DNA of 64,000 nucleotides from a bacterium (GTDB taxonomy: Bacteria > UBP6 > UBA1177): contig JAEESW010000009.1 of assembly GCA_016290135.1 (NCBI GenBank), positions 3,174 to 67,173 of the forward strand. Reading direction: 5' to 3'. The position numbers were made by a program, and so were the translations under genes. Every line of letters starts with the position of its first letter. Position 1 is the first letter of the stretch. Below the pieces are notes generated by a model. It saw nothing but the letters and a program-made list of their open reading frames with translations. It was not told the DNA's origin and searched no databases. Shown here piece after piece: positions 18,380-56,655 of this stretch.

Positions 18380-21300
18380 TTATTTGCAAGTCATAATGTC
18401 AAGAATGACCTGATCGGTCTTCTCCATTCCTTCTGAAGCGACAGTCGCAAGATTTTTGATGGTTTTTTCGATGTCGCGCTCGATTATTCCATCGGTTTCG
18501 GAGATCTCGATGTTTTCGATCGCTAAAAGTGCGCTTTGAAGTGCCGCGTTGATCGTAGTTGAAACTTTGAGTGCGCATCCCGCCTTAGCGCCGTCGCATA
18601 TCATGCCGGAGATGTTTCCTATCATGTTTTTGATTGCGTAGTTTATCTGCGGAAGTCCGCCGTCCATGAGATATACCATGCCGCATGCAGCGCCTGTGGA
18701 AGCCGTTACTGTGCCGCAGAGGGCCGAAAGTTTCGACATGAATTCTTTGAGGTGTATCGCGATCAGGTTGCCGAGATAAAGCGCGCGGATGAGTTTTTCC
18801 TCGCTTGAACCGAGCCTTTCTGCAGTCGCGACTATCGGCATCATTACGGTTATTCCCTGGTTTCCGCTGCCTGAATTGCTCATGACGGGAAGCGTGCAGC
18901 CTGCCATTCTCGCATCACTTGCCGCAGCAGTGAGAGCCATCGCGTAGTTTGCAAGATCGTCGCACAAAATCCCTTTTTTGACGTTGAGGCGCAGAGTTTT
19001 GCCGACACGGAGCCCGTAGTCGCCGCTAAGACCTTCAAGGGCTATCCTTTTGTTCATTTCGGCACCCTCAAGAACATAACGGATCTTGTCTAAAGGCACT
19101 TTGTTGATGAAATTCCAGATCCCTTCGACAGTCATGTGGTGCTCCTCTGTCTTTTTGCTCTCCTCCTTGTCGAACGAAAGTGCGCTGCACGATTTTTGCG
19201 AAACGATTTTTCCGTTGAGTTCGGTGAGGACTATGTTTGTGTGGCTTCCGCAGATAATCGTCCTTGCACAGTTTTTGCCGCTGAAGCACGCCGCTTCGAT
19301 GTAGAGTTTGTCGACCTGCTCCTTGAGCGTGATCGAGATCTTTCCGTCTTTCACCATCTTTTTGGCTTCTTCGATCTCTTCGGGAGTGACGCCGCTCAGC
19401 ACTTCAAGTTCTTTTGTGGGATCTCCGCCTGTGATACCCAGCGCAGCCGCGATCGGAAGGCCGACCATGCCTGTTCCCGGGATGCCGACGCCGAGGCCGT
19501 TTTTCATGATGTTTCCGCTGAGAGCGATCTCCGCTCTTTTGATATGTCCGCCAAGAAGTTTCGTCGAAGTCGCCGCAGCGAGCGCCACCGCGATAGGTTC
19601 GGTGCAGCCGAGTGCCGGAACGACCTCGCTGTTGAAAGCGTTGATGTAAAGCTGGTAATCCATCTCTTCCTCTTTTCTATTTTCAACTACCTTAAAATCG
19701 GTGAAAACGCGGTATTCGTAAGCCTTGAGCTGTATGAAAAAGCCGTGCTCGAAGATATCTCCGGTGCTGATCGTGTATTCCTTGCCTGAGATCAGCTCTT
19801 TGAACTGCAGATAAGTCCCTTTTTCATTTCTGAGTCCGAGTGCAAAATCGAGATTTATCCGTTTAAGTTCATTGCTTCCTTTGTCGAGCCATGCACAGCT
19901 CTGCTTGATCCAGCCTGATGTTTCGGCAAATTTGTTGTGGTAGAAAACAAGCACTTTGCTCTCTCCCCAGCCGTTCGAATATGCGAAAACGTTTTCATCG
20001 ACCGAGCCGTCGGATCTGTAGAAATCGTAGAAGTGGAAGTCATCGACGTGGGCAAAAAGGCGGCGCAGATGCAGAAGCGGGAAAATTTCGCGCTCGTGCC
20101 GCTCTACAAGTGCCTGATTGACGGTCTCGTTTTTGTAGGCGCGTCGGTATTCCATGCCGTATTTTTCGGAAAATCCTTCGATCTGGCCGTGTCCGAACAT
20201 CGGAAGTCCCGGCATCGTTATCATAAGAAGGGTGACTCCGAAATATTTGTCGTTGTCTCCGAACTGCGCGACAGCCGTCTCCTCATCGGGATTGTTGAGG
20301 AAGTTGACGTATCTTTCGAGAATGTGCGGGTCGAATTCGAGAACGCTTTTTACAGACTGTCTGTATTTCGCGTTTTCCTCGTTTTTCATAAAGTTCATGA
20401 ATGCGCTGTTGTAGACGCGGTGCATTCCCAAAGTCCGCACGAAATAGCCTTCCATAAGCCAGAAAGCCTCGGCCAAAAGCAGCGTTTCGGGTGCATCGAG
20501 AGCGACTCTGTCAACGACTTCGCGCCAGAATTCCTTCGGAAAAAACTTGTTGAATTCTTCGGTCGTAAGTCCGTGTTCGGCGCGTGATGCAATGTCTCCG
20601 CCGCTTCCCGGTTCGGGGAACCAGAGCCTGTGATAGTGCCTTTTTGCAAGCGTCATCGCTGCATCGAACCTGATCACCGGGAAGTTTTTCGCGATTTTTA
20701 TGATCGTCTGAATCACCTGTTCCCTGACATCGGCACGCATATAGTTGAGCTGCGCCGTATCGTTCCACGGCATGCAGGTCCCGTCGTTTCCGTGATAGAT
20801 GTAGTCGGTTTTTCCTGTCCTGAAATCGACCCGTTTGAAAGTTACCGCCGCATCGCTTTTCGAATAGTAGTGGTCTTCGATATAAATCCCGATATTCGGG
20901 TCGCTCGAAAGGTTTTCGCCGTTATATGTGTAGGCAGGGAAGGGCGGCTCGTCCGCCGAAATGAACCATTCTGGATGCTCCGAGATCCACTTTGAATCGA
21001 TCGCCGTGTGGTTGGGGACCATGTCGCTCGCAAGTCTGATCCCGTGTCTCCACGCCCTTTCGCGGAGATTCTGCATCGCCGCTTCGCCGCCGAGTTCAGA
21101 GGCTATTTCGTAGTCGTAAAGCGAATACGCACTTGCCGCAGCTTCCGGGTTTCCCATTATCTGCTTGATTCGTTTCGATGCTTTGCTGCGCTCCCACAAA
21201 CCGATCAGCCAGAGTGCCGTAAAGCCGCGTCTGGACAGGGTTTCAAGCTCTTCGTCGGGGATCCTGTCAAGAGTATGGATGTCGGCCGAATACTGCTTTG

Positions 21301-22231
21301 AAAGCTGGTCGAGCCATACGAAAACATTTTTCGCGATCATCACGACGCGCGGCATCCAGAACGAATCTTCCGAAAAATTCTCGTTTTCAGGGTCGCCTTC
21401 GCCCCAGCCGGCAAGAGCATCTTTTGTCAGTGCCGGAAAATCGCCGCCTCCGCCCGTCCCGAAGACAGGTTTTGTCTCCTCTTTTATGATATCGGCAGAA
21501 AGAAGGAGCATTTTCGAAAAACGCGCCGAGATCTTTACTCCCCAGTTTTTGCGGATAAATTCAAGCTGCCCCGCAAGAGAATCAGGACTTGCCTTGAAAG
21601 GCGCGCGCAGAAGGTCGAGAACTGAAATCTTTTCGCCGCCGAGACCGATCTTCGGACTGCTTTCGAAAAAGTTTTCGGCTATATCGAAAAATTTTCCGTA
21701 AGCAGGATTTTTTTCAAGAACCTCATCTCCGAAAAGTTCGTCAAATTCGGCAAAAGCCGGATTTTCATTGGCGATTTTTAGCAGGATAAGCTCTTCGAGT
21801 TCTGTCAGTTTATTCTGAATTCCGTCCGTTGAAGCGGCAAAAAACTCGGCTGCGCTCATTCCGCCTGTCATCGTCTGCTGAGTCGGAAATTCCTTGATAA
21901 AATCGATGATCAAAGCCTTTGTAGTGTCGCTACCGAGCTCATGCTCAGCCTTTTCAAACAGTTTTTTTAAGAAATCGGGAAAAATTTCAGTCCTGTAAAG
22001 ATGAAAAATGAAGTGCCCGATCTCGTCGATAAGCCCCATTGCATAAAGATTTCCCGGAGTTATGTGCTTCCCGTTTTTTTCCGCGGCATACTGCAAATTA
22101 AGTTTGTGCGCGAAATCCTTCGCAGCTGCAAAATCGGCGAAAACAACATTCCCCGAAATCGAAAAAAGTTCTTTTGAAAGCTGGAAACGCTCTCTGGAAG
22201 CGCGTTTTACGTGAAAATGATTCGTATGCAT
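18380..22231 (-). CDS. fusion ORF: GH13-like alpha-glucan hydrolase/transferase (N-terminal ~856 aa) + YhaM/CdsB (UPF0597) L-cysteine desulfidase-like domain (C-terminal 427 aa)
   Basis: GH13 regions I-IV: DMVPNH; IRFDAAMTLAKRH; AEAFW; FLNNPDEE. C-terminal domain aligns throughout with E. coli YhaM: PALGCTEPIA, NGLGVGIPGTGMVGLPIAAALG, CGSHTNIV, MSNSGSGNQGIT, KLSALCG, MICDGAKAGCALKVS. One continuous 1283-aa frame; internal Met at 19661..19663 is preceded by GAGGAAGAG. Confidence 0.8.
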   Translation of the reverse strand: MHTNHFHVKRASRERFQLSKELFSISGNVVFADFAAAKDFAHKLNLQYAAEKNGKHITPGNLYAMGLIDEIGHFIFHLYRTEIFPDFLKKLFEKAEHELGSDTTKALIIDFIKEFPTQQTMTGGMSAAEFFAASTDGIQNKLTELEELILLKIANENPAFAEFDELFGDEVLEKNPAYGKFFDIAENFFESSPKIGLGGEKISVLDLLRAPFKASPDSLAGQLEFIRKNWGVKISARFSKMLLLSADIIKEETKPVFGTGGGGDFPALTKDALAGWGEGDPENENFSEDSFWMPRVVMIAKNVFVWLDQLSKQYSADIHTLDRIPDEELETLSRRGFTALWLIGLWERSKASKRIKQIMGNPEAAASAYSLYDYEIASELGGEAAMQNLRERAWRHGIRLASDMVPNHTAIDSKWISEHPEWFISADEPPFPAYTYNGENLSSDPNIGIYIEDHYYSKSDAAVTFKRVDFRTGKTDYIYHGNDGTCMPWNDTAQLNYMRADVREQVIQTIIKIAKNFPVIRFDAAMTLAKRHYHRLWFPEPGSGGDIASRAEHGLTTEEFNKFFPKEFWREVVDRVALDAPETLLLAEAFWLMEGYFVRTLGMHRVYNSAFMNFMKNEENAKYRQSVKSVLEFDPHILERYVNFLNNPDEETAVAQFGDNDKYFGVTLLMITMPGLPMFGHGQIEGFSEKYGMEYRRAYKNETVNQALVERHEREIFPLLHLRRLFAHVDDFHFYDFYRSDGSVDENVFAYSNGWGESKVLVFYHNKFAETSGWIKQSCAWLDKGSNELKRINLDFALGLRNEKGTYLQFKELISGKEYTISTGDIFEHGFFIQLKAYEYRVFTDFKVVENRKEEEMDYQLYINAFNSEVVPALGCTEPIAVALAAATSTKLLGGHIKRAEIALSGNIMKNGLGVGIPGTGMVGLPIAAALGITGGDPTKELEVLSGVTPEEIEEAKKMVKDGKISITLKEQVDKLYIEAACFSGKNCARTIICGSHTNIVLTELNGKIVSQKSCSALSFDKEESKKTEEHHMTVEGIWNFINKVPLDKIRYVLEGAEMNKRIALEGLSGDYGLRVGKTLRLNVKKGILCDDLANYAMALTAAASDARMAGCTLPVMSNSGSGNQGITVMMPIVATAERLGSSEEKLIRALYLGNLIAIHLKEFMSKLSALCGTVTASTGAACGMVYLMDGGLPQINYAIKNMIGNISGMICDGAKAGCALKVSTTINAALQSALLAIENIEISETDGIIERDIEKTIKNLATVASEGMEKTDQVILDIMTCK

Positions 22232-24460: not shown

Positions 24461-24739
24461 TTACTTGAACAACTCCGAATGTGTCCCCGCACGATAAAGG
24501 ACAAGAACAAGAACCTCATTTTGGATTTCGTATATCAAAAGCCAGTCAGGTTCGATGTGGCATTCACGTGTCCCTTTGTAGTTGCCAGAAAGTTCGTGGT
24601 CACGGTATTTCGCATCAAGTGTGCCGCCTTCGGCAAGAATATTCACGACTTCGAAGAGTTTATCCAAATTCCTGTTCTGTTTTTTCGCCAGTTTCAGATC
24701 TTTCTTGAACTGGTTCGTGAATTTGACTTCGTATTTCAT
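24461..24739 (-). CDS. yafQ: type II toxin, RelE/YafQ family mRNA interferase
   Basis: 92 aa, KFTNQFKKDLKLAKKQNRNL...ELSGNYKGTRECHIEPDWLLIY pattern of the YafQ/RelE fold. Overlaps upstream antitoxin by 4 nt. Confidence 0.8.
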   Translation of the reverse strand: MKYEVKFTNQFKKDLKLAKKQNRNLDKLFEVVNILAEGGTLDAKYRDHELSGNYKGTRECHIEPDWLLIYEIQNEVLVLVLYRAGTHSELFK

Positions 24740-25008
24740 GCTTCCAATGCCGCTCTCAGTTCATCCATGCTGGAATAGCCTTTAACGCTGCTGTCGGCTG
24801 CGATGCGTCTGCCTTCCTCGATAGCGGCTGCTGTAACATCGTTCGGTTCGTTCAGCTTCAGCGCGAACGGGATCCCGTGTTCACGGATTGTTGTCCGCAG
24901 AAACATATTGATTGCGGTTGTCATGTTAAGTCCGAGTTCGGAAAAAATCCTGTCAGCTTCTTCCTTTACGGCTTTGTCAGTCCTGATGTTTAAATTTGTT
25001 GCAGTCAT
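24736..25008 (-). CDS. dinJ: type II antitoxin, RelB/DinJ family
   Basis: 90 aa, LNIRTDKAVKEEADRIFSELGLNMTTAINMFLRTTI ribbon-helix-helix antitoxin; cognate of the downstream YafQ-like toxin. Confidence 0.8.
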   Translation of the reverse strand: MTATNLNIRTDKAVKEEADRIFSELGLNMTTAINMFLRTTIREHGIPFALKLNEPNDVTAAAIEEGRRIAADSSVKGYSSMDELRAALEA

Positions 25009-25029
25009 TTTTTACCTCCGTTTTTCGGT

Positions 25030-25075
25030 TAGAATATACACAGTATTCGTTTATTGTCAACACAATAGCTCTATT
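25030..25075 (-). promoter_or_regulatory. sigma70-like promoter and operator-like inverted repeat of the dinJ-yafQ operon
   Basis: Minus strand reads TTGACA-N16/17-TATATT ending about 20 nt before the dinJ ATG (RBS GGAGGTAAAAA). TATTG-N6-CAATA inverted repeat overlaps the -35. Coordinates approximate. Confidence 0.5.
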
Positions 25076-25112
25076 TTGTCATAGAAAAATGACTTTTCAT
25101 CCAACTGCTCTG

Positions 25113-25148
25113 TTTTTCGTCCGATTCTGGCTCAATTTGGACGAAAAA
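25113..25148. repeat. 36-bp palindromic element copy A (TTTTTCGTCC-N16-GGACGAAAAA)
   Basis: Perfect 10-bp inverted arms with a 16-nt spacer, downstream of the AT-rich ORF and about 50 bp upstream of the dinJ promoter. Confidence 0.65.
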
Positions 25149-25228
25149 TTTAAGCCGCTGTCGCGTTGGCGGTTCAGATAGTCAGTTAGCCAGATCGTCT
25201 GCTTTGCATATCAATATACAATATTTGC

Positions 25229-25999
25229 TTAATATCTTGAATTTATTGACGTTTTGTGCTCGGAGTACTCGTTTGATATATAGCCGGCAATCTTCCTGAT
25301 ATTGTCATAGCTACCACCTTGTGCGGATTGCAAATAAATTGACCAACCAACAACAATACTTTGATTATATTCTCCAAAATATGCTGAGAAATTTTTTTTC
25401 CCATCATTAACAGGCTGTTCAATATATTGGAATTTTAGCTGTTCTTGAATTTTCGAAAAAGCAGTTTTTCCATTCAAAAATATAAATTTAAATTTTTTAT
25501 ATGAAAGCAATTTCTTTAAAAAAGGAAGTCCTGTTTGAAGCAATAAAGACCTCGAATGATCAGTAAGATCAGCCCATTTGGGAGTAGTTGCCCATTGAAC
25601 CAAATCCAAAGCAACAACACTTCCTTCATAATATGAAAGATTTGCATCAAATGCTCGCAAAAACGTTTCCATTTTATCAAACCAAAGTTTATATGGTTTT
25701 TTATCAAAATACCCTTCACATTCTTTTAGAACCTTTTCTGCATCATCTTCAGAAAGTTTATCTTCATCTTTTTTCCCTAATTTTTTTCGATAACAAAGTC
25801 GAGACCTATCGTTTTCTAACAAATTATTTTTTGCATCATAAAATTCTCTGTCACTTGGATTTAAAGATATTGTGCAAGCTGTAGCCTGTTCCAAATTGCC
25901 AAAAAAAGGAATCGGTGTAGTACCTTTTGTTATTTGAAGAGTAGTGTCAATAGGCATCATTATAAGTTCCAAAATCTTACGTTTAAACTCTGCATCCAT
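25229..25999 (-). CDS. hypothetical protein, AT-rich orphan gene (256 aa)
   Basis: Clean ORF with strong RBS (AAGGAGAAAAAT-ATG). Markedly lower GC (about one-third by eye) than flanks. No domain confidently recognised. Confidence 0.6.
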   Translation of the reverse strand: MDAEFKRKILELIMMPIDTTLQITKGTTPIPFFGNLEQATACTISLNPSDREFYDAKNNLLENDRSRLCYRKKLGKKDEDKLSEDDAEKVLKECEGYFDKKPYKLWFDKMETFLRAFDANLSYYEGSVVALDLVQWATTPKWADLTDHSRSLLLQTGLPFLKKLLSYKKFKFIFLNGKTAFSKIQEQLKFQYIEQPVNDGKKNFSAYFGEYNQSIVVGWSIYLQSAQGGSYDNIRKIAGYISNEYSEHKTSINSRY

Positions 26000-26038
26000 A
26001 TTTTTCTCCTTATTTCATTATTTTATTTTCAACCACCG

Positions 26039-26095
26039 TTTTTCGTCCAATTTTGCCGATTTTTGGACGAAAATCAACCGCTTTGGACGAAAAAA
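26039..26095. repeat. 36-bp palindromic element copy B (TTTTTCGTCC-N16-GGACGAAAA, 26039..26073) plus extra half-site GGACGAAAAA (26085..26095)
   Basis: Same arm sequence and spacer length as copy A; spacers 10/16 identical in the same orientation. Sits immediately upstream of the AT-rich ORF. Confidence 0.65.
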
Positions 26096-26211
26096 CCGTT
26101 TTAACCATCTAAAAGTCCAGCAAATAAAGTCGTTTTTCGGGAAATGACGTGGTTGAAATTCTGGAATTTTGTGAAAAATTAGTCAAAAACAGCCGGAATT
26201 TTGTGAAAACT

Positions 26212-26697
26212 TCACACGATATCCGCCGGTGTGCAGCGGCTGACACTGATGAGGTCTTTGGGCGAAAGCTCGACCTGAAAGCCGACTTTTCCTGCGCTGA
26301 CATAGATTTTTTCGAGATTTTCCGCGGTTATGTGCAGGAATGTCGGGAACTGTTTTTTCATTCCGATCGGCGAGCAGCCGCCGTGGACATAGCCGGTGAG
26401 CTGAAGAAGCTCCTTCTGTTTTATCATTTCGATCGATTTTTCGCCTGATGCTTTTGCCGCTTTCTTAAGGTCAAGCTCGGCGTGGACGGGGATCACAAAA
26501 ACATAGTGCTGGCCGCTTTTTCCCTGGGTGACGAGCGTTTTGAAAACATTGGACGTGTCTTCGCCTAAGATCGCGGCGATCTGAACGCCTGTCAAAGTGG
26601 CGTCGGGCTCGTATTCATGCGCGGTGTAAGCGATTTTTTTGCTCTCCAGAACACGCATGACATTGGTTTTTTCGGGCTTTTTCATTTGGCAACTCAT
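26212..26697 (-). CDS. ybaK: Cys-tRNA(Pro)/Cys-tRNA(Cys) deacylase YbaK
   Basis: About 157 aa, NVMRVLESKKIAYTAHEY..KTLV..GGCSPIG motif pattern of YbaK/ProX trans-editing domain. Start may be the internal Met at 26685. Confidence 0.85.
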   Translation of the reverse strand: MSCQMKKPEKTNVMRVLESKKIAYTAHEYEPDATLTGVQIAAILGEDTSNVFKTLVTQGKSGQHYVFVIPVHAELDLKKAAKASGEKSIEMIKQKELLQLTGYVHGGCSPIGMKKQFPTFLHITAENLEKIYVSAGKVGFQVELSPKDLISVSRCTPADIV

Positions 26698-26827
26698 TTT
26701 TTAACAAAATCACAAAAAGCACGAAATTATAGGAAAATCGCATGGAAAGGCAACGATAGTTTTCTTTTGACCATGTTGAGCAAAGCGAAACATCTTTTGG
26801 CTCCTATTTAAAATTTTTCCGATTTCG

Positions 26828-26930
26828 GGAAAAATTCTCAATAGCATTTAGAAAATTTCCAAAATAAGAAAAAATTCTCAATAGTGTTGCGAATTTTTCT
26901 GAAATGAGTAAAATTTCTCAACAGGTTCTT
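26828..26930 (+). promoter_or_regulatory. three tandem ~40-bp direct repeats (core AAAATTCTCAATAG) upstream of the AAA ATPase gene
   Basis: Repeat cores at ~26830, ~26870 and ~26910 (AAAATTCTCAATAGCATT / AAAATTCTCAATAGTGTT / AAAATTTCTCAACAGGTT) with a co-repeated GAAAATTTCC / GAATTTTTCT sub-motif. Ends about 20 nt before the RBS (AAGGAG) of the ATG at 26949. Confidence 0.45.
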
Positions 26931-53496: not shown

Positions 53497-54984
53497 TTAT
53501 AATTTCTCCAAAAGCTCTTTCGCCTTTTTGTAGCGTTTGCTTTCGGGATCTACCGAGTTGATGATCTTCTGAAGAAGTTTTTTCGCTTCTTCCGGATCGG
53601 AATCTTCCATAGCCTTTGCTTCCATGTAGAGTCTCTTTGCTTCGTCTTCGCTCATGGTCGCTTTTTTCTTTGCCGGTTTGGGCTCAGCCTTTTTCTCGGC
53701 TTTCTTGGGTTCTTCCTTCTTCGGCTCAGCCTTGGGCTCTTCTTTCTTGGGCTCTTCCTTCTTCGGCTCAGCCTTGGGTTCTTCTTTCTTCGGTTCAGCC
53801 TTCTTGTCAGCTTTCTTGGGCTCTTCCTTCTTCGGTTCAGCCTTCTTGTCAGCCTTCTTCGGCTCATCTTTCTTGGTCTCTTCCTTTTTCGGCTCTTCCT
53901 TTACTTCATTCTGCTGCGGTTCTTCCTTTTTCGGTGCGGAAAGAAGAAGGTTCTGCGCATCTTTGTAGAAGATCGAGTTTTCGGGGATCGATCTCAGAAG
54001 TTCCTCACCTTCAGGATTTTTCTGAGCGAGCTTCGACTTGCCGTTTTCGAAAGTGATCTGGTTGGTCTTTTCTCTGCCGATAAGGACAGCCTGCTCGTTG
54101 AGCCACGATTTGTACGGATTGTCGCCGGAGGTCTTTTCGTTTGCCGCAAGGACAGCCTTTTCCGCGTTCTTGAGGTCTTTCGCCGCGATCATTTTTTCTA
54201 TCGCAGCTTTATCCTGCTCTCCGAAAGCTGCTTTGACTTCGGTGGCAGTCTTGACCGGCTGGTTGTTCTGGTTGTCGAAAAGCATAAAGTATGCAACACC
54301 GCCGATACCGATGAGAAGGATTATGATGATCGCGATGATGATGCCTGTCGAAGATCCTTTCTTTGCCGGTTCTTCATCTTCGATGTCGTAAGCGGGCTGG
54401 AGCGTCTGTTTCGTAACTCTCTGCGCCTGCTGTTTCGGCTTAAGGTCAGGATTGAGTATCTCGAACTTTATCTGGCGTGCGCCGGCCGAAATGATGTCTC
54501 CGTCAGAAAGAGTGGCGGACGTGATCTTCGTACCGTTGACCTTCGTGCCGTTTCCGCTGCCCATGTCGGATATTACGAAACGGTCGTCGTCCTTCGTGAT
54601 CTTGAAGTGTTTTCTTGAGACCGAACTGTCGCTGATGACGAAATCGTTGTCGAGGCTTCTTCCGGCGATGATCTCATCTTTCGTGATCTCGATGTTTTTG
54701 CCGGTGTCCTTGCCGTCGACGATCGTAAGTTTTGCGTCTGCGGGGTGGCCTGAAAGAGCCGACAGATCGATGATCGCGGTCTTTTCGGAAGCCATCTCCT
54801 CATCGTCTTCGTCGTCAAGGTATTTTGATGAGATCGAGGAAATAGGCGGAGGAGTCGGGATCGAATCGGATTTCTTGCCGAGAGCTTCCTTTCTTGCCTT
54901 TTCAGCCTTGATCTTTTCAGCAAGTTTTTTCAGGTATTCCTTGTCGATTGTGGGTTTTGCATTGTTCTGATTGTTTTCGTCCAT
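53497..54984 (-). CDS. FHA-domain membrane protein with Lys/Glu/Pro-rich tandem repeats
   Basis: N-terminal FHA domain (GR..DNDFVISD..VSRKHFKI..FVISDMGSGNGTKVNG), one TM helix (GIIIAIIIILLIGIGGVAYFMLF), (AEPKKEEPKK)n low-complexity region and a helical C-terminus. Start at the Met preceded by AGGAGA. Confidence 0.8.
   Translation of the reverse strand: MDENNQNNAKPTIDKEYLKKLAEKIKAEKARKEALGKKSDSIPTPPPISSISSKYLDDEDDEEMASEKTAIIDLSALSGHPADAKLTIVDGKDTGKNIEITKDEIIAGRSLDNDFVISDSSVSRKHFKITKDDDRFVISDMGSGNGTKVNGTKITSATLSDGDIISAGARQIKFEILNPDLKPKQQAQRVTKQTLQPAYDIEDEEPAKKGSSTGIIIAIIIILLIGIGGVAYFMLFDNQNNQPVKTATEVKAAFGEQDKAAIEKMIAAKDLKNAEKAVLAANEKTSGDNPYKSWLNEQAVLIGREKTNQITFENGKSKLAQKNPEGEELLRSIPENSIFYKDAQNLLLSAPKKEEPQQNEVKEEPKKEETKKDEPKKADKKAEPKKEEPKKADKKAEPKKEEPKAEPKKEEPKKEEPKAEPKKEEPKKAEKKAEPKPAKKKATMSEDEAKRLYMEAKAMEDSDPEEAKKLLQKIINSVDPESKRYKKAKELLEKL
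53680..53905. repeat. in-frame tandem repeats (15-30 nt units, CTTCTTCGGCTCAGCCTTGGGCTCTTC-like) encoding KKEEPK/AEPKK
   Basis: At least seven near-identical units visible in the FHA gene; they generate spurious ORFs in other frames. Confidence 0.7.
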
Positions 54985-55236: not shown

Positions 55237-56655
55237 ATGAGAAAAAACATTGTTTTTATGATGTTGTTCGTTCTTTTTGTTTTTGCGGGATGCGGTTCCG
55301 TCTCCCTTTTTGAGAAAGGCAATGCCGCAAGAGAAACGGACAAAGTCAAGGCACGCGGTTTCTATGAGGAATCATGCGAGAAGGAAAACAATTTCGAAGC
55401 CTGCCACAATGCGGCTATGCTCTGGCAGAAAGGCGACGGGATATGCGAAGAGAACACCAAGGCCCGCGAGCTTTTCAAAAAAGCGTGCGACGGCAGGTTC
55501 GACGAGTCCTGCTTTATCCTTGCCGATATGTGGGCCAACGGAAAAGGCGGTGTCTACAAAGATACCGATTCCGCTTTCAACCTTTATAAAGAGACTTGTG
55601 AACGCGGTCTCGGAAAGGCATGCAGAGGCGTAGGCCAGATCTATGCGAAAGGCGGCGGTTCGATCGCGAAAAGTATCGATAAGGCGAAAGAATACTTCGC
55701 TCTCGCCTGCGAAAAGGGCGATATGAAGACCTGCGTCGATCTCGGTCAGACATGGTCTAAAAAATTCGAAGAGGCTGAAGGCTACGAAAAGACAGTCACT
55801 TTCTGGGGGAAAGCGTGTGACGGCGGAATGCTTGATGTCTGCGAGAAACTTGCTGACATGATAGTCGCGACGAAGGAAAAGGAAGAAAAGGTCCCGCTTT
55901 CAAAAGGATACTACGAAAAAGCGTGTGATGGCGGTTCGAAAGAGGCCTGCTACAAACTTGCACGCGCCATGGTCGACAATGTCGAAGGTTCGGACGGCGA
56001 GGCTCAGGTCTACTATAAAAAGGCTTGCGATGCGGATCACGCTGAGTCGTGCTACTACATCGGTGTTTACCTCAGCGAGGCTTACGGAGAGACTGTCGAA
56101 CTTGAAAAACTCAAGGAGATGCACTCTTACTACGACAAATCCTGCAAAAAAGGTTTCGAGGCTTCATGCTCAAGCGCAAACTCACTTCAGGCTTCGATAG
56201 AAGAACAGGAAGAGGTGCTCCGCAAGCAGGAGGAAGAGAGAAAACTTGCTGAGGAAGAGGCACGCAAAGAGGCTGAGAGACTGGCGGCCGAAGAGGCTGA
56301 AAGGGAAAGACTCGAGCGCGAGAAAGCTGAAGAAGAGGAAAGACGCGCCGAAGAAGAGTTCAAAAGAAAACAGAAAGAAGAGGAAGAGGAGCTGAAGAGA
56401 CAGCGCAGAGAGGCTGAAAGAGAAGCCGCTGAAGCAGCTGCGAAAGAAGAAGAGGAAGAAGAGGAGGAGGAAGAGGAAGAAGAAGAGCCCGCTCCGAAGA
56501 AAAGCAAAAAGAAAGCTCCGGAACCTGAGGAAGATGAAGAAGAGATAGAGGAAGAAGAAGAGGAGGAGGAAGAGGAAGAAGAAGAGCCTGCTCCGAAGAA
56601 AAAATCGAAAAAGAAAAGCGCCGAAGAAGAACTTGACGACCTTTTCGACGAATGA
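55237..56655 (+). CDS. Sel1-repeat (Hcp-like, Cys-paired) lipoprotein with poly-Glu/Lys C-terminal tail
   Basis: Lipobox FVFAGCGS; about seven 36-aa Sel1-like repeats each with paired Cys (ACDG..C, ACEKG..C, CERG..C); C-terminal ERKLAEEEARKEAER.. and (E)n-PAPKKSKKK x2. Confidence 0.75.
   Translation: MRKNIVFMMLFVLFVFAGCGSVSLFEKGNAARETDKVKARGFYEESCEKENNFEACHNAAMLWQKGDGICEENTKARELFKKACDGRFDESCFILADMWANGKGGVYKDTDSAFNLYKETCERGLGKACRGVGQIYAKGGGSIAKSIDKAKEYFALACEKGDMKTCVDLGQTWSKKFEEAEGYEKTVTFWGKACDGGMLDVCEKLADMIVATKEKEEKVPLSKGYYEKACDGGSKEACYKLARAMVDNVEGSDGEAQVYYKKACDADHAESCYYIGVYLSEAYGETVELEKLKEMHSYYDKSCKKGFEASCSSANSLQASIEEQEEVLRKQEEERKLAEEEARKEAERLAAEEAERERLEREKAEEEERRAEEEFKRKQKEEEEELKRQRREAEREAAEAAAKEEEEEEEEEEEEEEPAPKKSKKKAPEPEEDEEEIEEEEEEEEEEEEEPAPKKKSKKKSAEEELDDLFDE
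56400..56640. repeat. GAA/GAG-rich coding repeats including duplicated (E)15-PAPKK(K)SKKK unit
   Basis: Two copies of GAAGAAGAG..CCCGCTCCGAAGAAAAGCAAAAAGAAAGC-like unit. Confidence 0.6.

Follow-up and report, generated by a model that had tools for sequence, protein, structure and literature searches.

On the minus strand of the 64-kb window (the whole stretch analysed here, 64,000 nucleotides of contig JAEESW010000009.1, assembly GCA_016290135.1), an AT-rich gene encoding a 256-aa protein lies between two copies of a 36-bp palindrome, designated pal1 (beyond the 3' end of the gene, next to a relB-yafQ toxin-antitoxin (TA) operon) and pal2 (upstream of the gene, next to ybaK). Rather probably, both palindromes are leftover operators of a Fic-winged-helix (Fic-wHTH) regulator, and a horizontally acquired gene for a protein with the UDG fold has replaced a fic block in a hypervariable islet. 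On this reading no new class of mobile element is involved: the palindromes would be orphaned Fic-wHTH operator copies on either side of a replaced cargo gene.

The palindromes occur at the positions given in the first-pass annotation of this DNA (Table 1). When the full pattern was searched for in the window with up to three mismatches, only two matches were obtained; the mean for 100 shuffles was 0.02, and two matches were found in 0/100. By its sequence, pal1 can be identified as the inner half-site pair of the operator copy located 5' of relB-yafQ in the related strains examined, and pal2 as the inner half-site pair of a fic-type promoter-operator. Each of them is accompanied by an outer half-site, 20 nt (start to start) from the adjacent inner one. 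The outer half-site of pal2, already noted as a third half-site in the first-pass annotation, is spaced as in all full Fic operators and has the 5' flank AAAACGG, a mark of outer-left sites in sister strains. The outer half-site of pal1 is degenerate and was overlooked earlier; it is conserved across all 3'-type copies. Because of these additional half-sites, each site of the window represents a three-half-site cluster and not a lone hairpin.

The core sequences are GCCAAC...GTTGGAT in pal1 and TTTCAAC...GTTGAAA in pal2. The folded single strand forms two stacked 11-bp stems with a symmetric internal loop between them; the stems are perfect (10–11 bp), and extrahelical or bulged bases are absent. 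No terminator was called by the terminator scan at pal1 or pal2, as the first-pass annotation had expected, and no match was obtained at the palindromes in the Rfam search. A terminator or RNA hairpin was rejected, since the −10 box is inside the loop and since the T-run and the A-run each flank the stem on the side opposite to that of a terminator. With the −10 box in the loop the hairpin is absent from the downstream transcript, which makes this a DNA-level element. The hexamers assigned to pal2 in Table 1 are predicted; the promoter scan instead calls TGGACG-18-TAAAAT at 26049-26020.

The forward scan, in which the arm pattern was searched for over one genome per species, returned 71 loci, compared with about 4 estimated by chance at uniform base composition. 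About 50 of the 71 loci also have outer half-sites and a TTGATT-17-TATAAT promoter in common, and at about 35 GTDB loci this promoter is placed between the half-sites. At about 35 loci the element abuts the gene of a 353-aa Fic protein (Fic-353), which starts after the element or ends directly before it, and in Firmicutes the element was found essentially only with fic. The operator layout is [TTTCGTCCAAC]-N8-[TTTTCGTCCAA]-N12-[TTGGACGAAAA]-N8-[GTTGGACGAAAGGAG]-ATG, where each inner arm has a further half-site 20 nt to its outer side, a second TTTCGTCCAA(C) before the left arm and a second (G)TTGGACGAAA after the right one. The promoter covers the left inner arm and the loop: its −35 box falls between the two left sites and its −10 box within the loop. 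The ribosome-binding site (RBS) is found in the fourth site, after which GGAG and then ATG follow.

Fic-353 is 78–97% identical across Lachnospiraceae, Lactobacillus, Mogibacterium, a proteobacterial metagenome-assembled genome (MAG) and spirochaetes. It has a Fic domain, an S-x-x-x-E-G inhibitory motif and a C-terminal winged-helix-like region (weak match). Among PDB entries, 8uqu is a close match (E 1e-79) and SoFic/3eqx, annotated 'Fic domain containing transcriptional regulator', a relative; the weakest listed match, 7xux (380 aa, E 8.5e-5), has the length of the CccR protein discussed below and may be CccR.

The reverse test was performed with 80 metagenomic relatives of Fic-353 (58–96% identity), 76 of which had enough upstream sequence. 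A perfect inverted repeat of at least 8 nt is present within 110 nt of the start codon in 56 of these 76, with 1.6 expected from shuffles; it starts 49–97 nt (mostly 60–65 nt) before ATG and encloses the −10 box in nearly all cases. Its arm exists in eight variants (TTTCGTCCAA, TTTCTTCTCA, AGTCCAA, AAGTTCAA, TTTCGTCTCAA, TTCTCCCAA, TTCTCCTAA and TTCGCCTAA), which track the protein lineage, and the copy after the stop codon, where present, has an arm identical to that of the upstream copy. The predicted recognition helix also differs between groups (GRSSALAALKKL, AKSSVLREIKRL, GSSSVESALKKL, SKASVENSIKQL).

A precedent is provided by CccR (YPK_0951) of Yersinia pseudotuberculosis, a Fic-HTH protein repressing its own promoter via AGATAATCAT-N26-ATGATAATCT near the −35 and −10 boxes (PMC9755527). 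The operators of CccR and Fic-353 are alike in that inverted repeats of 10 bp, separated by a spacer of unusual length, are situated near the −35 and −10 boxes of the fic promoter, and in a half-site spacing equal to a half-integral number of helical turns. They differ in the spacer (16 nt here, 26 in CccR) and in the number of half-sites (four and two, respectively). A second operator cluster after the stop codon is found here and a type VI secretion system context is not; moreover, the regulator gene itself is missing from the window, and CccR is only distantly related to Fic-353 by sequence.

Together, the reverse test, the covariation of arm and helix and the CccR precedent make the cognate operator of an autorepressing Fic-wHTH protein the best-supported and most likely identity of the palindrome. 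By analogy with CccR, Fic-353 is most likely an autorepressor that acts on its promoter in dimeric or tetrameric form. The earlier suggestion of paired operators for a dimeric regulator with the half-site TTTTTCGTCC was essentially right, the element being a Fic-winged-helix promoter-operator. Its presentation as a new element cannot be kept, since Fic-HTH autorepression via widely spaced 10-bp inverted repeats is already known from CccR. No Fic or ORF6N homologue was found in the 64-kb window, and related strains have one or two Fic genes in the same islet. As a UDG-like gene stands between the sites and there is no Fic in the 64 kb, the copies of the window can be regarded as orphan members of the Fic operator class.

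The fate of the fic block could be followed in relatives with flanks 92–97% identical, which were compared over the region from the ybaK stop codon to the yqeY promoter. The comparison of syntenic loci had been proposed in the first-pass annotation, and alternative as well as empty states of the slot were found. In L042 and L035, ybaK is followed by a leader, an operator, fic and another operator, and then by relB-yafQ (L042) or hsdM (L035). The order in L050 and L174 is ybaK, a single palindrome, TA, leader, operator, fic, operator, hsdR and hsdM. L175, L180 and L181 have ybaK (with guaA upstream of it), a single palindrome, relB and an acetyltransferase gene. In L176, Schlafen-type genes precede hsdR, the palindrome, relB, the acetyltransferase gene, an S58 peptidase gene and yqeY. 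The arrangement of the window (operator, UDG gene, palindrome, TA) is also that of L075-77 and L177. In L064 and L038, the operator and the UDG gene (a deletion remnant in L038) are followed by an ORF6N gene on the opposite strand, and in L064 then by a palindrome and yqeY.

In this comparison pal2 and the operator 5' of fic in L042 and L035 are near-identical as far as the edge of the inner-right half-site; past it, AT-rich DNA takes the place of the fourth half-site, the RBS and fic. Together with its outer-right site, pal1 corresponds to the copy preceding relB in all these strains, with a variable left neighbour: this element, its right flank unchanged, comes after ybaK in L050/L174 and L175, after fic in L042 and after hsdR in L176. 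In L176 hsdR (type I restriction) directly abuts this palindrome, and in the window an hsdR remnant separates pal1 from the acquired segment. The fic-bearing strains cease to be homologous at both edges of that segment, the right edge being defined by this remnant. The gene had been described as lying exactly between the palindromes, which requires correction on the pal1 side, where the 21-nt remnant intervenes. Likewise, the proposal of a small cargo-carrying mobile cassette is not sustained, because the acquired segment stops short of pal1 and the element is the fic promoter-operator in sister strains.

In the single palindromes, the junction of the two halves falls within the loop in L174 but within the left arm in L175. 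The different crossover points argue for homologous deletion between repeated operators and against a recombinase with fixed cleavage. This process is similar to solo-LTR-type (long terminal repeat) deletion, in which two direct copies (here of ~36 bp) collapse to one hybrid with loss of the intervening DNA and the crossover point differs between lineages; the repeats here are, however, operators and not the ends of a transposable element.

The Fic-353 module comprises a promoter-operator in front and a second operator copy directly after the stop codon; in this rumen spirochaete lineage it resides in the hypervariable islet between ybaK and yqeY. Replacement most likely proceeded as follows. 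The fic module, probably then a type I restriction-modification (R-M) block as in L174, would first have lain between ybaK and the TA-proximal operator. All DNA between the inner edge of the fic operator and the final 21 nt of hsdR would have given way to the UDG-like gene, and the fic promoter-operator (pal2 and one outer site) would have been left before it and the TA-proximal copy (pal1 and one outer site) after it. We infer this order of events from the strains compared. Since the replacement would have left both behind, pal1 and pal2 are to be regarded as orphan operators and not as the ends of inserted DNA.

Other rearrangements were observed in the same islets. An ORF6N-domain gene of 300–330 aa is divergent from a full four-site palindrome in L064 (3450-4442), L037 (3116-4018) and L038 (6145-7137), and the UDG-like remnant of L038 corresponds to 25150-25271 of the window joined to 25962-26212. 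In L175 (5001-5356) and L176 (5001-5354), relB is directly followed by the acetyltransferase gene; yafQ is deleted except for its last codons (…SELFK*), which results in an antitoxin without a toxin.

Table 1. Position of the islet features in the 64-kb window.
Feature	Position	Strand	Description
ORF, 256 aa	25229-25999	-	UDG-superfamily-fold protein (by predicted fold), uncharacterised family
Acquired AT-rich segment	25171..26038	-	5' untranslated region (UTR) with RBS, ORF, 3' UTR ending GGCTAAC-N8-TGAACC
hsdR remnant	25150-25170	-	last 21 nt including stop codon; 20/21 identical to L176 4823-4843
pal1	25113-25148	-	TTTTTCGTCC-N16-GGACGAAAAA, perfect 10-bp arms, 16-nt spacer
Outer-right half-site of pal1	25094-25105	-	TTTTCATCCAAC, gene strand GTTGGATGAAAA, one mismatch
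pal2	26039-26074	-	one 10-bp and one 9-bp matching arm
Promoter hexamers of pal2	26072-26077 (−35-like TTGATT); 26050-26055 (−10-like CAAAAT)	gene strand	predicted by analogy with the family consensus TTGATT-17-TATAAT
Outer-left half-site of 5' operator cluster	26085..26095	-	GGACGAAAAAA, gene strand TTTTTTCGTCC, exact match
Leader between ybaK stop codon and operator cluster	26096..26211	-	two GGAATTTTGTGAAAA repeats, 26163-26177 and 26195-26209
relB-yafQ toxin-antitoxin operon	24461..25060	-	Pfam; own promoter TTGACA-16-TATATT, 25033-25060 (promoter scan)

The open reading frame (ORF) of the acquired segment has a G+C content (GC) of 0.319, the window mean being 0.478 (0.327 for 25149-26038). 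Equally low values were reached in 4 of 1,265 sliding windows of 771 bp, and the minimum of the 64 kb (0.314) starts at 25301, inside the ORF, so the conspicuous AT-richness reported before was confirmed by the sliding-window check. The gene is horizontally acquired, which supports its earlier description as xenogeneic, but it is not the orphan it was taken for: 62 homologues with identity down to 37% were found in Treponema, Gallaecimonas, Spirosoma, Fibromonadaceae and many metagenomes, and a profile search yielded 1,892 clusters (50% identity) at E <= 1e-3, 452 of them at E <= 1e-30. Among the fusion partners of longer family members, one is DUF6994 and the others are without family assignment.

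The ORF protein gave no match in Pfam, NCBIfam or PADLOC and only a chance-level match in PHROGs, and a profile search of PDB sequences with the ORF family produced a chance match only. The modelled protein has the four-stranded parallel beta-sheet alpha/beta fold of the UDG superfamily, to which it is assigned by fold alone. Its strand 41-45 is followed by an invariant N47-P48-S49, and strand 172-176 ends in an invariant N176-G177; we take these to be the positions of UDG motif 1 and motif 2. The first-pass remark that an ISLNPS loop recalls UDG/MUG is thus borne out at the level of fold only, since sequence links to UDGs (PDB, MUG) fail. UDG families 2–5 (MUG/TDG, SMUG1, family 4 and 5 UDG, UdgX) have no detectable sequence homology with the ORF family, which differs from them in its own invariant D132-x-x-Q-W-x-T block and E52-F53 pair and in ~60–90 extra residues forming a helical insertion. 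The product is probably a DNA glycosylase.

Homologues of this gene have a GC of 0.27–0.33, which is below that of the flanks in 6 of 7 loci examined; the exception, L082, has equally AT-rich surroundings. In L083 and L084 the UDG-like gene is located within an array of ~130-bp repeats (R'' TCTAAC, R' GTTAGAT), whose cores agree with those of the attC sites listed for T. denticola in the supplementary material of PMC3607928. Positions 1-7818 of L083 represent a Treponema-type integron cassette array with six ~130-bp attC copies, carrying two DNA methyltransferases, a DUF5677 protein, the UDG-like homologue and a Phd/PIN toxin-antitoxin pair; no integrase was found in these 7.8 kb. In Gallaecimonas (L074) the gene lies between ~165-bp direct repeats with a 1.14-kb spacing, near a RexA-like gene, and in another lineage (L078) it directly follows rpsU-yqeY. 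The motif GGCTAAC-N8-TGAACC at 25171-25191 of the window resembles the R''-L'' half of a Treponema attC (~0.03 chance matches estimated in the islet), which is only a hint that the gene could be derived from an integron cassette.

UDG-fold enzymes acting as phage defence have been described, namely Brig1 (PMC11078745) and the integron-borne Brig2 (bioRxiv 10.1101/2025.10.29.685425); the motifs SLNPS, LNPSD and QWATT of the ORF family were not found in two text supplementary files of the Brig2 preprint. The context of the islet is also of the defence type: the PDC-S01 ATPase adjoins it, and in relatives the same islet harbours genes of type I R-M, Schlafen/AlbA_2, Fic and TA systems. An anti-phage or defence role of the product is possible, and reading it as a defence glycosylase is reasonable, because UDG-fold proteins in such contexts act in phage defence. 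Separately, in the Oribacterium MAGs L031 (4860-5317) and L041 (4165-4628) a full Fic-type operator cluster is placed 5' of a Pyr_excise gene and not of fic. Pyr_excise is a T4 endonuclease V-like pyrimidine-dimer DNA glycosylase, so this is a second DNA-glycosylase gene behind a Fic-type operator.

Several points weigh against this account. The UDG assignment is by fold only: a match to the Pfam UDG family (PF03167) is absent for the ORF protein, its family has no sequence match in the PDB beyond the chance one, and hhalign of the family with E. coli MUG gave no signal. We infer the binding of Fic-353 to the palindrome, and of a Fic protein to the sites of the window, from the operator comparisons. 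The history of the ~110-nt leader is left unaccounted for. A Fic protein may be encoded in trans beyond the 64-kb window, in which case the operators would not be orphans. Pal1 and pal2 are intact though relics might decay, and in L064 the copy has decayed, unlike those of the window. Finally, the left breakpoint is exactly at the edge of the inner-right half-site, and the cargo and the order of modules vary among strains, which leaves room for palindrome-directed recombination.

Continued use of the operators is possible, though we consider it rather unlikely. According to this explanation, a Fic-winged-helix paralogue encoded elsewhere in the genome binds pal2 and pal1 and represses the UDG-like gene and perhaps TA, which corresponds to the first-pass suggestion that a xenogeneic gene is silenced. 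It agrees with the intactness of both palindromes, with the overlap of pal2 and the likely promoter of the gene, with the one or two Fic genes in the islets of related strains, and with the retention of operator copies upstream of relB where no fic intervenes. However, no Fic-353 homologue occurs in the 64-kb window. The half-site that coincides with the RBS in genuine fic promoters, the fourth, has been lost. In L064, moreover, the operator before the UDG gene has lost its inner-left half-site, which reads TTTTTGCCAG, and the gene is still 96% identical; this decay is consistent with relaxed selection.

The palindromes could also serve as recombination sites of an integrase-free cassette system (attC-like or Acinetobacter pdif-like) with the recombinase encoded elsewhere, whose cargo would be fic, the UDG-like gene, TA, ORF6N and the acetyltransferase with the S58 peptidase. 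This is unlikely, although it is not exclusive of the operator reading. The variation of cargo and gene order among strains with nearly identical flanks, several breakpoints at palindrome edges and the existence of the single-palindrome state would be expected of such a system. The outer half-sites of full copies (GTCCAAC...GTTGGAC) fit the attC consensus RYYYAAC...GTTRRRY, the single strand folds into the two stacked stems described above, and homologues of the UDG gene elsewhere are genuine integron cassettes. As in Treponema chromosomal integrons (PMC3607928), a promoter-poor AT-rich gene is found between repeated imperfect palindromes, in a strain-variable array with TA modules, and the same protein family occurs in the Treponema-type attC array of L083.

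Against these likenesses, GTCCAAC...GTTGGAC are simply operator half-sites, the arms covary with the adjacent Fic, and a conserved −10 box is present in the loop. The stems are perfect without extrahelical bases, and the T. denticola attC sequences contain neither TTCGTCC nor GGACGAA and show no similarity. No integrase, transposase or resolvase was found within 10 kb on either side. Crossover points differ between the two single-palindrome states, the hsdR remnant separates the acquired segment from pal1, and the Firmicutes element occurs essentially only with fic. For tyrosine recombinases, the 12–16-nt spacer is too long for a core site. An identification with integron attC was rejected for lack of a nearby intI and on the basis of the perfect stems, the embedded promoter, the Fic covariation, the absence of similarity to Treponema attC and the hsdR remnant.

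It appears quite improbable, too, that Fic operators double as portable exchange points, through palindrome-stimulated breakage or a host recombinase, and so form an integrase-free, regulator-linked cassette system. If this were the case, palindrome slots would swap defence-type genes (fic, type I R-M, UDG-like glycosylase, ORF6N, TA) between strains and even phyla, and captured genes would be immediately controlled by a trans-acting Fic-wHTH repressor. The first-pass suggestion of REP- or MITE-like ends (repetitive extragenic palindromic; miniature inverted-repeat transposable element), with the gene as cargo between copies of a dispersed repeat, is hardly credible: a short perfect palindrome does occur twice within 1 kb and in many genomes, but the 64 kb hold no more than two copies, the unit is not bounded by terminal inverted repeats with target duplication (the segment is flanked by an operator edge and the hsdR remnant), copies elsewhere number one or two per locus and are tied to one gene family, fic, and to a fixed position at its start or stop codon, and the only tandem or dispersed arrays with the same arms (RGIG7689) are without the CCAA extension and the outer sites.

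These arrays occur in the Clostridia MAG RGIG7689 (L067 213-430; L058, L061, L070, L020) and are tandem, with a 72-bp period. Their units have the same TTTTCGTCC/GGACGAAAA arms, with loop and spacer varying between loci; fic is also lacking, and the L067 array adjoins a tRNA gene. CRISPR was rejected for them because the 'spacers' are near-identical within a locus, and they are not the Fic operator either. In plasmid and phage collections, no match to the fic module with palindromes was found at megablast sensitivity. Only four viral contigs have the arm pattern (L167-L170, IMG/VR); they share loop and flanks among themselves, the loop differs from that of the Fic operator, and outer half-sites and fic are absent. 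They represent a separate hairpin family.

The leader between the ybaK stop codon and the operator cluster accompanies the fic operator, and in L050/L174 it is placed 3' of yafQ and 5' of fic. Its GGAATTTTGTGAAAA repeats are ~32 nt apart and are present in three copies in L050/L174 (L050 4980-5080). The first 11 nt of the leader (TTTTCACAAAA) mark the junction in single-palindrome strains and the junction after yafQ in L174. Pal1 as a relBE operator was rejected, because the same TA module with its promoter is found without any palindrome in an unrelated context (L173).

Apart from the TA pair and an AAA_14/DUF4143 ATPase (PADLOC candidate PDC-S01), gene calls and Pfam revealed nothing but housekeeping genes within 10 kb on both sides of the islet. 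Three tandem 40-bp units (ATTTAAAATTTTTCCGATTTCGGGAAAAATTCTCAATAGC and variants) at 26806-26925 are located upstream of this ATPase gene and run into its start; each holds a TTTTTCC-N7-GGAAAAA palindrome, and the array resembles a further operator array. An ORF of 1,283 aa at 18380-22231 (minus strand), kept in relatives, contains an alpha-amylase-family domain fused with a serine-dehydratase-alpha-like (SDH_alpha) domain. Two large ORFs contain tandem repeats, at 53636-53943 and 56230-56614, with periods of 12, 15 and 27 nt; on the plus strand one is pyrimidine-rich (CTT/TTC-type) and the other purine-rich (GAA/GAG-type), and they probably encode low-complexity charged protein segments.

The comparison supplies, at the sequence level, an operator model for a very widespread and horizontally spreading Fic-winged-helix family of gut and rumen bacteria. 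In this model the operator has four half-sites and is repeated as a second cluster behind the stop codon, and the covariation of arm and helix amounts to a partial recognition code. CccR is the sole member of this regulatory class studied experimentally. The ybaK-yqeY interval represents a small chromosomal hotspot whose contents turn over among near-identical strains, and orphan operators of the kind found there can mimic the ends of mobile cassettes, which calls for caution in repeat-based discovery of mobile elements. Members of the UDG-fold family, which comprises ~1,900 clusters (50% identity), are met repeatedly as AT-rich islets, as integron cassettes or as genes of defence islets, and these recurrent contexts make the family a concrete candidate for an anti-phage DNA glycosylase.

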